Program-made: the position numbers and the translations under genes
Shown here: positions 12,803-19,901 of the stretch, in pieces
How positions within the stretch are numbered: the first letter of the stretch is position 1
Layout of the letters: every line of letters begins with the position of its first letter
Source of the DNA: Octopus vulgaris
Taxonomy: Eukaryota
Reading direction: 5' to 3'
DNA length: 64,000 bases
NCBI GenBank assembly: GCA_951406725.2
Contig: OX597822.1
Coordinates: 62,000,001-62,064,000, forward strand
The notes under the pieces: generated by a model
What the model was told of the DNA's origin: nothing
The model's input: the letters and a program-made list of their open reading frames with translations, nothing else
Databases searched by the model: none

Positions 12803-13094
12803 CATTTCGTCCGTGTTTACGTTCTGAGTTCAACTTTGCCCTTTTGTCCTTTCAGGGTCGATAAAATAAGTACCAGTTGAATACTGGGGTTGATGTAGTC
12901 GACTTACCCCCTCTCTGAAATTGCTGGCCTTGTCCCAAAATATGAAATCATTATTATTAAGGCAGCGAGCTGGCAGAATTGTTAGCACGCCGGACAAAAT
13001 GCACAGCGGCATTTGGTCCGTCGTTACATTCTGAGTTCAAATTCCGCCGAGATCTACTTGCCTTTCATTCTTTTGGGGTCGATAACATAAGTAC
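12803..13094 (+). mobile_element. SINE family B (Nin/Deu-domain-like), two tandem pieces; the second resumes at 18577-18660
   Basis: GCCTTTCATTCTTTTGGGGTCGATAA..AAGTAC core; same family as 41764-42160. Confidence 0.75.
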
Positions 13095-13231
13095 TTAACT
13101 ACTAGTGGTTAAGAGCGCGGGCTTCTAACCCCAAGATTGCGAATTCGATTCCAAGCAATGATCTGAATAATAATAATAATAATAATAATAATAATAATAA
13201 TAATAATAATAATAATAATAATAATAACAAT

Positions 13232-16200
13232 AAATTCTTTTATTGGCCACAAGGGCTGACAAAAATCAATTATCACATAAAGGGACAAAACAGGACGAAA
13301 GGTTACAGAGGGTTTTGTCCGTTTGTAAAATCGAGTAAAAAACAGTTTAACACCGAAAGATTATAACAATGAAAATCTCCCAAAAGGGGGAGGCGTTACG
13401 AAAGGTTCCTGGTGGAAAAAACCACAAAAGCCAACGGGAGTCTGGTCAAAAGCGGGGTAGAGAGCCCCTTTCTCCTCTTGTAATACCTTTTTAAATTATA
13501 GGTGTATTCTCAGAATGGCTCCTTTCATACTTGCCATTCTTGCGACATTTATCCACCTTTCACTAAATTTGCAATCGGACAGCACTTCCCTCTCTACTCT
13601 CATCTTCCTTTTCAAGTGAAACTTGAAAAAGTTGATGAGGCCTGGGCCAAAGAGGAAATTGTCTGACCTTAGCCCTTTCAAACGGGTCCACCATACCACC
13701 TCTTTCGCTACAGCCACTAGGCAAAAGAAAACTGCCTTGCCCGCCCGGTTAAAGGAGGTCGGCGGGGCAATCTTCACTGTGGATTCAGCTGATAGCAGGA
13801 TCCGTCCTATACGCGACAGTAGCTGTTCGACATAAACCCATAGTTCAGCAATACTCGGACACTGGACGAGTGCGTGCAGAACGGTTTCGTCGTCCTGGCA
13901 GGTCCGGTTGACGGCACTTCCGTGCTGGTAGAGTTTAACTCGAACAGGAAGCGCTCCTCGGTAGCACTGCCAGGCGAGGGACCTCTGGAAATTGCCCATT
14001 GGCCCCAGCCCGAAAGTCCTCCCGAACAGACTGCTCAGCTCGTTATCGTCAACGCCTAGAGTTTCCCCGAGAACGTCGTCGCATTTTTCTTCCACTGACC
14101 CTCTATAGAACGCTAGAGTGGAACTACTTCCGATCGCATTGCCCGCCTGGCGGAGGGCGCCAAGCGCCCTTTCTCGGTCTGCGTTTGATCCAGGTCTGCA
14201 GCTCTGTCAAAGAGACGAGCTGCGGAAAGTCGCGTCTGACAAAAGACGACTACACCTGTTCACCGTCTAGAAAACGCTTGAGATGCCGTAACCTGAGCGC
14301 ATGTCTGCGCATCAGTAACCACGGCATGCCAAGGCCTCCGTTCAGCGGTCGTTGACAGCAGATGGATCGCCTGACCAGTGGTACCTGACCCTTCCACAAA
14401 AAGTCGAAGATCAAGCACACCAGCTTGACCAACCAGCGGTCGGGACAAGGGACGACGGTCAAGCGGTAATAGATGACGGATGCGATGTACGCATTCGCCA
14501 CCTCCGCTCGACCTTTCAGGGACAGCTTCCTCTCGGCCCATTTCTGGGTGAGATTGGCCCCCTGCTCGTCACTTCCACCCAGTTTTTTTCCACATGGAGG
14601 TCTGGGCCGAACCAGACTCCGAGCAGTTTAACGGGTCCGTCTGTCCAGCGCCCTACGACGCTGTTGGACGGCATGGACTTGCCTCTCCAGGTGCCTAGTT
14701 GCAAGCCCACGGACTTTTCCGCGTTAATTTTTGCCCCTGTCACCGCTTCGTATTCGTTTAGCGTCTCGTCGATCAGATCAATGTGCCTGTGGCTCGACAC
14801 TATCACGGTGACGTCGTCGGCATAGGCAGACACGCTGTTTCCACCTCCTAGATCGCGCGGGATACCCCTCAAAGCCTCCAACTTGCGCAGTAATGGCTCG
14901 AGAGTTAATACGTACAAGAGGGAGGAGAGAGGGCATCCTTGACGGACCGAACGCGAGATGTCAAACGTCTCTGAAAGGTGACCGTTCACCCGTATTACCG
15001 AGCAGATGTTGCTGTATAAAGCAGCGATCCACCCGCGGAAGACTGGACCGAAGCCGGCTGCCTTGAGAACAGCCGCTAGGTATGGATGGTCGACCCTATC
15101 GAAGGCTTTACTCTGATCTAAATTGATCAAAGCCCCACCCGCGCCAGCGTCGTTACTCACCCTCTCTATGGTGTAGCGCATGAGATGGAGATTATCGTGT
15201 ATCGACCTGGTCAGCACGGCGCATGTCTGCGCCTTTCCAATCAGCTCGTCCACGACAAGCGCCAATCTCTTGGCTAACACCTTGGCCAAAGTATCTTCAA
15301 CTCTGCATTGAGCAGAGTGATGGGCCGAAAGTTCCCTATAATGTTCCCCTTGTTTGAGTCCTTTCTCAACAAAGCCACCACTCCTCGACAAACAAAAGCA
15401 GGAATTCTCCCGTTTTGCTGCCAGTTGCAGTAGACGGTTGCCAAGAGGCCCGCAAACAAGTCTGGCATTGAAGTGTAAAGCTCGTAGGGCTGACCATCCA
15501 AATCCGGCGATCTACCTCTCGTACAGCTTTTCATCGCTTCCTCCACTTCCCAGGCAGATATCGGCCTTCCGCAGCACTCTGCCTCGCTGTCCGAGAGTTG
15601 CGGTAGGCCGTCCAGGTACACACCGAAGTCTGCACCGTTGTCCGTCCCACCGTTCGTCCCAAACAGTTGAGCAAAGTGCCGCTGAAACACCGCACACATC
15701 TGCTTCGGCTCAGAAACCTCGCGCCTGTTCTGGTCCACCAAAGACCGAATGGTCGCTTTGTTGCCCCACTTCGCCTCCGCCACGCGGGCCCATAGAGCGG
15801 CCTTAGTCCCCTCGCCGCTTAGCGAACGCGCCTTAGCTCTGACAACGTAGCCTTCGTGTTTGGCTTCAAAGTGTTGGTCGAGGGCCAACCTAGCCGCCAA
15901 CACGTCGGTTGCGATGCCTGTCTCAAGAGCCTCGTCTAGTTTTCTAACTAAATCCCGCTCCATTTTCCTACGTTCTACAGCTAGAGCCTTACTAAACCTA
16001 ATCGACTCTGCTCTAATTGCTCTCTTGAGGGCAAACCACCAGTTGTTGTTGATGATTGCCCCCGTGAGCGCCCGTGTAACTAATAAACTAATCCGGTCTC
16101 TGTAGGCTTTGCACACCATTAACGACGCGTTCAGCTTCCAGTAGCCGGGTCCCTGTCTATGTAGCCTATCTAATTCGACCGTACAGATCACGAATTTGTG

Positions 16201-18265: not shown

Positions 18266-18464
18266 AATAATAATAATAATAATAATAATAATAATAATAA
18301 TAATAATAATAGTAGTAGTAGTAGTAGTAGTAGTAGTAGTAGTAGTAGTAGTAGTAGTAGTAGTAATAATAATAATAATAATAATAATAATAATAATAAT
18401 AATAATTATAATAACATCGAAATATACCTTAGAAATGAGAACCCAGGTTCGAAATTTCCTCCAA

Positions 18465-18510
18465 GACACCTGATGAAGGCTGGAAGGTATATCAGCCGAA
18501 ACGTTGTGTT
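18465..18510 (+). ncRNA. Minimal type I hammerhead ribozyme
   Basis: GACAC-CTGATGA-A-GGCTG(loop)CAGCC-GAAACGTT-GTGTT; canonical core, palindromic stem III AACGTT, GUU cleavage triplet. Confidence 0.8.
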
Positions 18511-19901
18511 AACAAGAAACAAGATGAGAACAAATATCCGTCAAATGTAAACAATGTAAATAATGAACATAAGTACCAGTTGAACACTAGAGTCGGTGTT
18601 GTCGACGAGACACCCCTCCCCAAAATTTAAAGTCTTGTGTTCAAAAGTAGAAATGAATATTATAGGAAGAGGGGGTGGTGGTGGAGGAGAAGGAGGAAAA
18701 GAATAACAAGAACAGGGTGAAAGAGGCGATGAAGAGGAGGAGGTTGACGAGTTCGATGAGAAGAAAAAGAGAGGAGGAGAAGAGGAGGAGAGGGGAGGAG
18801 GCAAATTGAGTAAGAAGAAAATAAAAGGAAGAGAAAGAGGGGGAAGGGGGAAAAGAGGAGAGGGAAAGTTGTAGAAGAAGAAGAAGAAGAAGAAGAAGAA
18901 GAAGAAGAAGAAGAAGAAGAAGAAGAAGAAGAATGTGCCTTTAGAGCTGTGGGGAAAAGAAAGCCTGGCTGATGCGTGGAAAGATGTGATTTCCATCAAC
19001 TGAAGCAAGGCAAATGTGAGTGCATGTCTTACTCATCAAGGCTGAGGCGTTGCCACCTACTGAGTTGATGCCCCACGAAGTTGCGCAAAAGTTGATTCTG
19101 CAAAATTTTATGCGGCAGATTACGTCCAGAGTCATTGGCTCGTCGTCACCTATGCGGTACGATGTGAGAAGTGTTGAGTGCAAGCCTCACTAGAAACAGC
19201 TTGTGGTTGACATATCTGTATAGACACAAAGGTCGAGATGAGTTCCGAAGAGTACAAATCTTTGTGCAGTGTCCTTCACTGAGGGTGCAAATATTAGTCA
19301 TTAATCGTGTGGTGTAAATCAGAAAGCTCGGTTATTGTACGTGTAGCTCTCATGAGGACTCATTTTTACAATCCATTGTGCTCTCATTCAGGTGTTGTTT
19401 GTCTTCAGTTCAACCTAAATTGAGTAGATAATAACTATTTAATCCACGACCCACTCGTCTTTGTTTCAGGAAGTTTGGTCTCCGTAACTTAGCGGTTCGG
19501 CAATAAGACTGATATAATAAGTACCAGACCTAAAAAAACAAAAGAACTGGTGTCGATTTGTTTGATCACTGTCGATAACTTGAAGCCAGTGAATGATAAA
19601 AGATATAACAGCTTCGTCCCCTTAAGACGGGGCTGTGAACCAAACAGGGGGCTGACTTCATGTCCACGCAATACAATCTCAGAAGGTAACAGACTGCTGT
19701 GGATATTCCTAAATGAAAAAAAAGGTGGAGGATGGAGAAATTATTATCAATACCTTTAGTTTCGTTTCTATGTGGCCGTTCGACCTATTAGATATAGCAG
19801 TCGGACTCTACTGTTTTGGGAAATCAAAGGACATGCTGAAAAATGTAAAAATGTAAAGTGAAAAATGCAAATGTAGTCAAGGATTAAAACGTAAAAACGT
19901 C

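Follow-up and report, generated by a model that had tools for sequence, protein, structure and literature searches.

A SINE-like repeat of Octopus vulgaris as the solo terminal repeat of a Penelope/Poseidon-type retrotransposon with a tRNA-derived head

In this study we analysed a short element within a 64,000-nt stretch of octopus DNA (the window). Judged by its sequence, the element is the lone pLTR of a Penelope/Poseidon-type retrotransposon and not a separate SINE. The complete reading that we favour, and which we hold to be rather probable, is that of a 5'-truncated solo pLTR which was inserted with an 11-bp TSD into another repeat and was later split by two LINEs. The tRNA-derived head of the family's pLTR, with its A and B boxes, likely drives Pol III transcription of the template RNA.

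The element lies between two copies of the TSD AACATAAGTAC (13084-13094 and 18566-18576, both on the plus strand). As stated in the first-pass annotation, this 11-bp repeat is perfect, and the window contains the exact 11-mer nowhere except at 13084 and 18566. Each flank is one half of a different SINE-like repeat, also abundant. The left half (12960-13094, plus strand), tRNA-like and of SINE type, matches a window copy at 41766-41900 by 84%, and the right half (18566-18665, plus strand) matches 12863-12957 by 72%. Their continuity is documented by an intact copy of the host repeat at 12803-12957: the left flank aligns with it as far as 12873, the right flank aligns with it beginning at 12863, and the overlap is exactly 11 bp. 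The left TSD is followed by a fold-back (13095-13112, unstranded) with an 8-bp arm and one mismatch, which is the inverted 5' arm usual in the family (22/29 and 24/30 other copies in two samples) in minimal form. The (AAT)n linker between head and tail consists of a left part (13168-13227, plus strand), part of which may be the repeat tail at the 3' end of a nested LINE, and a right (AAT)n/(AGT)n part (18263-18412, plus strand). Two later-inserted LINE pieces split it. The first (13228-18036, minus strand) is 5'-truncated and frameshifted and contains APE, RT and zf-RVT domains (Pfam PF03372, PF00078 and PF13966). The second (18039-18262, plus strand) is the 225-bp 3' end of a restriction-like-endonuclease LINE and matches, by 72-85%, LINE 3' ends that 5 other copies of the element carry within or next to their (AAT)n. 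We take the layout of the minus-strand LINE to be of L1/Tx1 type, and the plus-strand piece is, by its motifs, presumably R4/Dong-like. Fold-back, linker and nested LINEs had all been noticed before and were found in place. The pLTR tail (18413-18565, plus strand) matches 39 other places by 93-96% and ends at the short 3' end of the family.

The tRNA-like head described earlier is present at 13103-13167 (plus strand), with its B box near 13142-13152. Compared with the family head it begins only at +13; therefore half of the A box is missing, and the B box carries a G>A change. In the family head, A box and B box are both intact. This head shares 47-49 of ~73 letters with the tRNA-Arg genes of its own genome, well above shuffles, and tRNA-Ala scores close. 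The octopus SINEs OR1 and OR2 are of tRNA-Arg origin. ARAGORN detected no tRNA in the window nor in 40/40 element copies, and Rfam gave no hits in the window at the gathering score and no hammerhead or tRNA match in a further locus (L158). Folding of the head produced no cloverleaf (z-scores of -0.4 and -0.5), and for this reason processing by RNase P was set aside as the source of the 5' end.

A canonical minimal hammerhead had been proposed at 18465-18510 (plus strand). The motif is present and minimal but not canonical, as A9 is followed by an extra A, helix III is missing and the site is GUU. Stem I (18465-69/18506-10) and stem II (18478-83/18492-97) both form in the fold, with the core at 18470-76, the extra A at 18477 and GAAA at 18498-501; only a CG palindrome stands in place of helix III, and the cut is predicted after 18505. 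An extra A after A9, a helix III reduced to a CG palindrome and GUU were described for the minimal hammerhead type of PLEs (PMC4209133). By these features of its sequence the motif in the window is a minimal type I hammerhead of Penelope type. Among 203 tails, N7 is the sole common non-CpG variant of the hammerhead core. The folding z-scores are ordinary (-1.1 for the hammerhead, -0.8 for the tail).

The repeat is carried by an autonomous element, whose ORF we located by tblastn of the proteins of other PLE families against tail-bearing loci. The unit comprises, in this order, the ORF (RT and C-terminal GIY-YIG), a UTR of ~30 nt, the tRNA head, (AAT)n, the minimal hammerhead and the tail, which in tandem copies continues into the ORF start. 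The head directly follows the ORF stop in 24/30 copies (2 of the 30 being seed loci) and the ORF end in 24/28 of a protein-selected set. The tail is joined to the ORF N-terminus in 22/30 copies, and this partial tandem arrangement forms the pLTRs. One copy (L309) is complete, running from head and tail through the ORF to a second head and tail. Moreover, the ATG at 18435 in the window tail is in frame with the PLE ORF of the tandem copies. A 569-aa open frame with RT was found in L179, and the N-terminal part in L173 and L183. This frame shares ~40% identity with proteins of 740-830 aa that bear neither a name nor a clade label, and it matches RVT_1 with an E-value of 2.7e-6, at a score just below the Pfam cut-off. 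Pfam called no GIY-YIG domain in the 569-aa frame; by alignment to Pfam-positive GIY-YIG PLEs it has a C-terminal domain of this type in which YKG replaces YIG. The tail-bearing family has no Cys-rich linker between RT and EN, while such a linker is present in the 781-aa and 574-aa families. Its absence from the predicted protein points to the Penelope/Poseidon clade and away from Neptune/Nematis. A genome search with the Pfam GIY-YIG domain returned other PLE families, and in none of the 30 + 14 loci was the tail shared as a pLTR. One candidate for a tail-sharing PLE (L093) was rejected, its tail match being a separate insertion. A genome search with P0082 found the same tRNA-headed family only and no sister family without the head, and in metagenomes a scan with P0001 gave no loci.

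Insertions of the family stop preferentially at one of two 3' ends that are separated by 32 nt, they carry inverted arms, and their TSDs measure ~8-17 bp. A TSD score of at least 8 was reached in 37/87 loci compared with 6.5% of 400 mismatched flank pairs. Of 41 insertions with outward-facing tails on both sides, 38 had exactly one long end and 0 had two long ends; the 25 insertions among these that were chosen without regard to the long end comprised 22 with one long end and 3 with none. These ends agree with the PLE tail, the inverted pLTR and the two RT start sites described previously (PMC11167929, PMC3846280, 10.1101/2021.04.23.441226). As inverted arms of which one is long and one short are a known Penelope signature, the Penelope-like machinery suspected at first is supported, and the LINE route is contradicted. 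We give next to no credence to a SINE mobilised by a LINE, with inversions due to twin priming. LINEs are abundant in the window and the TSDs start in A-rich sequence, but the paired arms are duplicates of one sequence that differ by a constant extension of ~26-32 nt, the tail corresponds to the beginning of a PLE ORF, and the 3' end has neither poly(A) nor a repeat tail.

The first-pass annotation had also regarded the element as a SINE of its own. The link between head and tail on which this was built holds in other copies (22/29 within 250 nt), and in these 22 uninterrupted copies the linker measures 6-117 nt. The retrotransposon has spread through the genome thousands of times; exact 18-mer counts were 8924 for the hammerhead, 4213 for the head and 999 for the UTR just upstream of the head. 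In addition, the solo unit of ~280 nt lies below the <700 bp of SINEBase, and it has the tRNA-derived head that SINEBase asks for. However, the head belongs to the terminal repeat of the autonomous element in both sets of copies given above, and none of the variants distinguishes the 58 solo from the 60 ORF-linked heads, the divergence being 4.2% in ORF-linked and 3.8% in solo copies. Therefore, there is no separate SINE lineage. SINEBase further describes SINEs as non-autonomous families that arise from their own copies and are reverse transcribed by a partner LINE. Here, one minor deletion derivative was found at 2 loci, and the tail is not a LINE 3' UTR but Penelope pLTR and ORF start, with ends of PLE type. 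The derivative (L187 and L189) is internally deleted and keeps head, tail and 233 nt of the ORF. Both loci have the deletion junction and a private variant in common while their flanks differ, which means that one non-autonomous derivative, at the least, has been copied. It is quite improbable that the element belongs to an independent family of Pol III SINEs that has master copies of its own, was made by joining a tRNA head to a PLE tail and is mobilised in trans. This reading would fit with the derivative having been copied at least twice, and with solo copies being short, TSD-flanked and several-fold commoner than ORF-linked ones. Apart from the shared variants and the place of the head in the autonomous element, it is opposed by solo copies that end at the RT start sites, without the downstream segment required in the anole system, and by the lack of head-to-tail tandems of solo units (0 in 87 loci).

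Pol III likely transcribes the element from its tRNA-derived head. On tRNA-type promoters Pol III starts just upstream of the A box. In a position-ordered sample of 30 copies, 20 of the 5' ends were located at -7..+3 of the tRNA start, 2 at -20/-26 and 8 inside the head, and 0/30 copies extended 5' into the ORF. The sense strand of a 2633-nt copy (L173) is free of TTTT, and no T4 site is common to more than 16% of the aligned copies, compared with 1.2-9 TTTT per kb in 10 other retroelement stretches. Together, the A and B boxes, the placement of the 5' ends and the absence of a shared TTTT make Pol III transcription likely. The P value for the TTTT absence ranges from 0.006 to 0.12 depending on the null chosen, the strictest giving 0.12, and GGGG is likewise absent. 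A synonymous shuffle of one decayed copy revealed no TTTT depletion (P 0.61), and avoidance of the TTT codon was borderline (3:12 vs 52:60, P 0.058). In three raw RNA-seq runs, from an organism that may differ from this species, reads were equal on both strands, ~75% of them continued into unlike flanks, and no pile-up of starts or ends was listed. Two-strand reads running into the flanks fit read-through.

Alternatively, the same Penelope-type element might be transcribed by Pol II, and the head might be a passenger, a simple SINE that inserted into the 3' UTR long ago. The pile-up of 5' ends would then reflect a Pol II start or a snap-back at the 5-bp palindrome at -7..+5, which could cause one there. 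We consider this unlikely, though it deserves to be taken seriously. The ORF must be translated and a Pol III RNA would be uncapped, the RNA-seq gives read-through only, and the TTTT test is not decisive. Palindromes at the 5' ends of pLTRs are known and were interpreted as self-priming, and PMC2377424 describes a TATA-less internal promoter of Pol II type in the Penelope repeat of D. virilis. Nevertheless, many copies end at -6..+2 without folding back on the palindrome, and stronger hairpins in the tail halt copies less sharply. The stop also sits just 5' of the intact A box, where Pol III starts.

With Pol III transcription as the preferred reading, the RNA would start ~2-7 nt 5' of the tRNA-like sequence in the upstream pLTR. 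The protein of the element would bind near the pLTR/ORF junction and nick AT-rich DNA, and by analogy with the anole element, as studied in vitro, reverse transcription may begin internally at one of two sites. From the first junction only ~300 nt would be copied, up to the RNA 5' end, which would yield a SINE-looking solo repeat; a start at the downstream junction would give rise to copies that carry the ORF. In the template RNA the hammerhead likely remains uncleaved. Solo copies are likely mostly dead ends, since they are without the downstream ORF segment needed by the anole protein.

Small-RNA-derived 5' ends are found in Ingi/Vingi elements. The apparently novel feature of the octopus family is the tRNA-derived A/B-box head in first place in the pLTR. 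We found no report of a tRNA-headed pLTR in the literature searched, the scope of which lay outside Repbase, Dfam and subscription journals. The Penelope/Poseidon PLEs Poseidon_Ac of Anolis, Penelope of D. virilis and Pen2a of A. vaga have, as here, a single ORF of RT and C-terminal GIY-YIG without a Cys-rich linker (PMC11167929, PMC3846280, PMC4209133). They also share partial tandems, an inverted 5' pLTR, an extension of ~30 nt (30-40 bp) on one end only, a minimal hammerhead overlapping the ORF start, solo pLTRs and variable TSDs. Unlike theirs, the octopus pLTR has the tRNA-derived A/B-box head at its start, followed by the (AAT)n linker, and the sense strand of the element has no shared TTTT. 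The pLTR promoters described in the available parts of PMC2377424 and PMC3846280 are of Pol II type. Similar to the octopus repeat, the short high-copy repeats SM-alpha and Sj-alpha of schistosomes combine a Pol III-type promoter with a following type I hammerhead (PMC6765202). However, these are described as non-coding, SINE-like and often tandem, and their canonical hammerhead as cleaving in vitro, whereas the octopus repeat is the end of a coding element, has a minimal hammerhead without helix III and showed 0/87 solo tandems. Non-LTR retrozymes and the non-autonomous Chlamys elements (MRC1) are also short, pLTR-related and thought to depend on PLE proteins; retrozymes differ by tandem arrays and circular RNA and, in the source parts available, are said to lack promoters and are described without a tRNA head. 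TRIMp3 elements (Cassandra, Helenus, Ajax) likewise have a small-RNA-derived Pol III promoter inside a terminal repeat, but they are non-autonomous LTR elements whose autonomous partners, according to PMC10886601, must use Pol II, while the octopus head sits in the coding element itself. The octopus retroposons OK, OR1 and OR2 (Ohshima and Okada 1994) are likewise tRNA-derived; OR2 is a CORE SINE. OK or OR1 might be the solo repeat of this study, described without its PLE context.

As a practical caution, repeat libraries likely file such solo pLTRs as tRNA SINEs. A putative tRNA-type promoter marks the predicted 5' end of the RNA, and this end is recorded in thousands of copies; therefore, the anole model of internal initiation is testable from genome data alone. 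If true, the use of Pol III would be a new transcription route for Penelope-type elements. If the whole template were a Pol III product, a protein-coding retrotransposon would here depend on a SINE-type promoter, a situation that the parts of the literature covered treat as not occurring. The finding thus bears on how Penelope-like elements are transcribed and on why solo and inverted repeats arise.

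The element at 13084-18576 is bounded by an 11-bp duplication of its target site on either side (TSDs), in line with what the first-pass annotation had claimed: the 11-mer of 13084 recurs in the window solely at 18566. Moreover, a single other repeat supplies both flanks, one half each, and an uninterrupted copy of it in the window matches both with an overlap of 11 bp. Between the duplications we recovered the described tRNA-like head (13103-13167), the 5' fold-back (8 bp) and an (AAT)n run after the head, with further (AAT/AGT)n beyond the nested LINE pieces. These pieces, also predicted, are a LINE on the minus strand that encodes APE, RT and zf-RVT domains and the 225-bp 3' end of a second one; we label them Tx1 and R4/Dong. 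They probably represent two later insertions into the (AAT)n. The second LINE is of the kind with a restriction-like endonuclease, and its 3' end lies in or beside (AAT)n in the window copy and in five other loci (noted at L001, L005, L015, L028, L032 and L123), so that this LINE apparently targets the linker. The tail of ~150 nt does carry a hammerhead motif. "Canonical" is the wrong word for it: A9 is followed by an additional A, G10.1 pairs with C11.1, helix II is long and helix I short, and a CG palindrome stands where helix III would be, which are the features given for minimal PLE hammerheads in the available part of PMC4209133. Rfam called neither hammerhead nor tRNA in the window and in locus L158, and ARAGORN called no tRNA in the window or in 40 of 40 copies. 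At 18435-18565 of the window as well as in L188 and L196, a frame opens at an ATG upstream of the hammerhead and passes through it into the ORF, and the 9-nt and 3-nt repeats preserve the reading frame.

The suggested comparison of the tail with autonomous Penelope-like elements (PLEs) identified it as a terminal repeat (pLTR) that runs into an ORF start. PLE families from a Pfam GIY-YIG genome search were rejected as partners, as none of the 30 + 14 loci examined shares the tail as a pLTR. A tblastn search of their proteins against tail-bearing loci matched L051 and L117; in both, and likewise in L109, a PLE ORF stops some tens of bases upstream of the head or linker. The 3' end of the ORF was then used to pick 30 loci, two of them seed loci; the head came directly after it in 24 of these, and the tail followed in 25. 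With an outside protein (57% identity) 30 loci were picked, some overlapping with earlier ones; the ORF end was reached in 28 and the head came next in 24. At the ORF start the tail was directly joined in 22 of 30 loci, the head lay upstream in 7 and the ORF end of a previous unit in 3, and L309 displays the complete order head-tail-ORF-head-tail. An open frame of 569 aa with RT is present in L179, and unnamed proteins 740-830 aa long are ~40% identical to it. Its protein has a C-terminal GIY-YIG-type domain and lacks the Cys-rich linker, which by the criterion in the accessible text of PMC3846280 is the Penelope/Poseidon layout. On this evidence the "SINE" is the pLTR of an autonomous element. 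The window element is thus almost certainly a solitary pLTR from a PLE that has the head inside its repeat. The family is real, high-copy and Penelope-like by every feature tested; mobilisation by LINEs, pieces of which lie within the window copy, is scarcely credible for such a repeat.

Of the 30 ORF-start loci, L185-L214, there are 24, within L186-L214, whose first stretch of ORF breaks off after 198-602 nt. In many of these a same-strand pLTR piece comes next, as if the partial tandem were built by RT switching to another RNA close to where pLTR and ORF meet.

The linkage of head and tail held elsewhere, the tail lying within 250 nt in 22 and within 1.5 kb in 26 of 29 other head-picked copies. 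Copies picked by the far 3' end contained a head in 15 of 29 and an inverted piece upstream in 22 of 29. In the genome, which comprises 2.8 Gb in 227 contigs, exact 18-mers occurred 8924 times for the hammerhead, 4213 times for the head and 999 times for the sequence directly upstream of the head (reversed controls: 0). Rough corrected arm numbers are ~23,000-35,000, 9,000-11,000 and 2,600, the head figure probably being too low. The repeat was also present in sequencing runs of six organisms, and an annotated Octopus sinensis protein shares 73% identity with the PLE ORF of this family.

Outward-facing tails on both sides were found at 41 of 87 loci, with exactly one long end in 38, neither in 3 and both in 0. 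As 16 of the 41 had been picked by the long end, the remaining 25 comprise 22 with one, 3 with none and 0 with both. According to RNA reads the two 3' boundaries are 32 nt apart; in the window the element stops at the short one. Flanking direct repeats, a few of them low-complexity, scored at least 8 at 37 of the 87 loci, 30 of which belong to the 41 just described, compared to 6.5% of 400 mismatched pairs. Similar results were described by Frangieh et al. for an anole element, where, in the part of PMC11167929 available, RT begins internally at two sites flanking the extension, ~172 nt of ORF are required, the hammerhead is overlapped by the ORF start and uncut RNA is the template.

Observed are the anatomy and the junctions of the tandems, a pair of 3' ends, arms in inverted orientation, TSDs and a pile-up of 5' ends; from these we propose a solo PLE pLTR with a tRNA-derived head and a Pol III start in an upstream pLTR, which as a whole is the probable reading. 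Pol III would initiate within an upstream pLTR, and from the first pLTR/ORF junction the protein of the element would carry out reverse transcription; reaching the RNA 5' end after ~300 nt would yield a solo repeat. Copies that carry the ORF would result from a start at the next junction, the inverted arm could arise by fold-back or template switching as the first strand ends, and Pol II read-through could provide the mRNA. The window copy may be one product of the solo route, cut at +13 relative to the head start and therefore left with an incomplete A box. In the family head the A box, at +8, is intact and a B box is present; among 35 distinct tRNAs its best match is to the tRNA-Arg genes of this genome (47-49 of ~73 letters; score 27.5-31.5, shuffles at most 16). 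The Arg isotype is tentative, with tRNA-Ala close (25-28) and 10 anticodon classes sampled. The head has no tRNA fold now. Among the first 30 exact head matches on contig 1, 20 began at -7 to +3, 2 at -20/-26 and 8 inside the head, and 0 of 30 ran on upstream into the ORF. The exact upstream 18-mer accompanies 6 of the first 100 head matches, so that ORF-linked heads are a minority. Several copies end at -6 to +2 without a fold-back, and the pile-up suggests that the RNA has a fixed 5' end immediately upstream of the A box.

Alternatively, the element could be driven by Pol II with the tRNA piece as a passenger, which we consider rather unlikely given this pile-up. Pol III transcription of the whole element is less likely than not. 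In keeping with Pol III, TTTT is absent from the 2633-nt copy L173, and the most common T4 site occurs in at most 16% of aligned copies; ten other retroelement stretches contain 1.2-9 TTTT per kb and an intact 781-aa PLE 9 in 2343 nt. How much this absence weighs varies with the null chosen, its probability being ~0.006 for independent bases and 0.12 under run extension. GGGG is likewise absent, a synonymous shuffle of the decayed copy L179 gave P 0.61, and TTT-codon avoidance had P 0.058. RNA-seq of organism B, which may differ from this species, yielded 9093 reads from 12.9 million, 7328 from 12.0 million and 6653 from 11.5 million, equally from both strands. About 75% continue into unlike flanks and neither starts nor ends pile up, so that these data neither support nor exclude a small Pol III RNA. 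RNA reads over L021:1549-1630 show A>G at 11-13 sites and T>C at 3-7, each at ~10-20%, with nearly none in the contig run, which could be A-to-I editing of long inverted-arm hairpins.

An independent SINE, as claimed by the first-pass annotation, is quite improbable: two defining SINE features are lacking, though solo copies are SINE-like. No solo tandems occurred among 87 loci. When 60 ORF-linked and 58 solo heads were compared, excluding head-selected loci, common variants had similar frequencies (head column 27:25 vs 30:22; hammerhead N7 34:9 vs 30:9), and divergence in near-invariant columns was 4.2% (46 copies) vs 3.8% (40 copies). Speaking the other way, L187 and L189, though unlike in their flanks, have in common a private variant and a deletion that begins after 233 nt of ORF at an identical junction; one short non-autonomous derivative was thus copied no fewer than two times (2 of the 30 ORF-start loci). 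Catalogues of octopus SINEs may already include the solo repeat; such SINEs were reportedly described by Ohshima and Okada in 1994. The available parts of PMC3531059, PMC5786205, PMC3747384 and PMC4758252, on SINE definition and partners, name no Penelope partner.

Other elements were also encountered. In a Neptune-like PLE family (G000, e.g. L091:2245-4587 and L096) the 781-aa frame is intact in 16 of the 148 GIY-YIG matches listed, which suggests recent activity; a pattern search found no hammerhead in its repeat. A hammerhead-like motif that contains a 6-nt palindrome also occurs in a third PLE family (L092 near 5721, L098, L100); its sequence bears no relation to the studied tail. The window further contains a minus-strand Mariner/Mos1-like transposase fragment (28972-29736; PF01359, PF17906), a weak match to another PLE protein (25771-25980; E 0.002), ~4 kb of A/C-skewed low-complexity sequence with strong skew and long stop-free frames (4000-8000), and LINE fragments with RT, APE or zf-RVT domains at 42714-44003 and 53724-55558 (minus strand).

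Ingi/Vingi elements are a precedent for LINEs with small-RNA-derived heads. Our literature search, with Repbase outside its reach, found no tRNA-headed pLTR. SM-alpha and retrozymes serve as comparison systems (PMC6765202, PMC7761336 and 10.64898/2026.07.22.740005, each in the part available), and Pol III promoters within LTRs are described for non-autonomous elements in the accessible portion of PMC10886601. The novel point, as read from the sequence, is a predicted tRNA-derived promoter inside the terminal repeat of a coding element.
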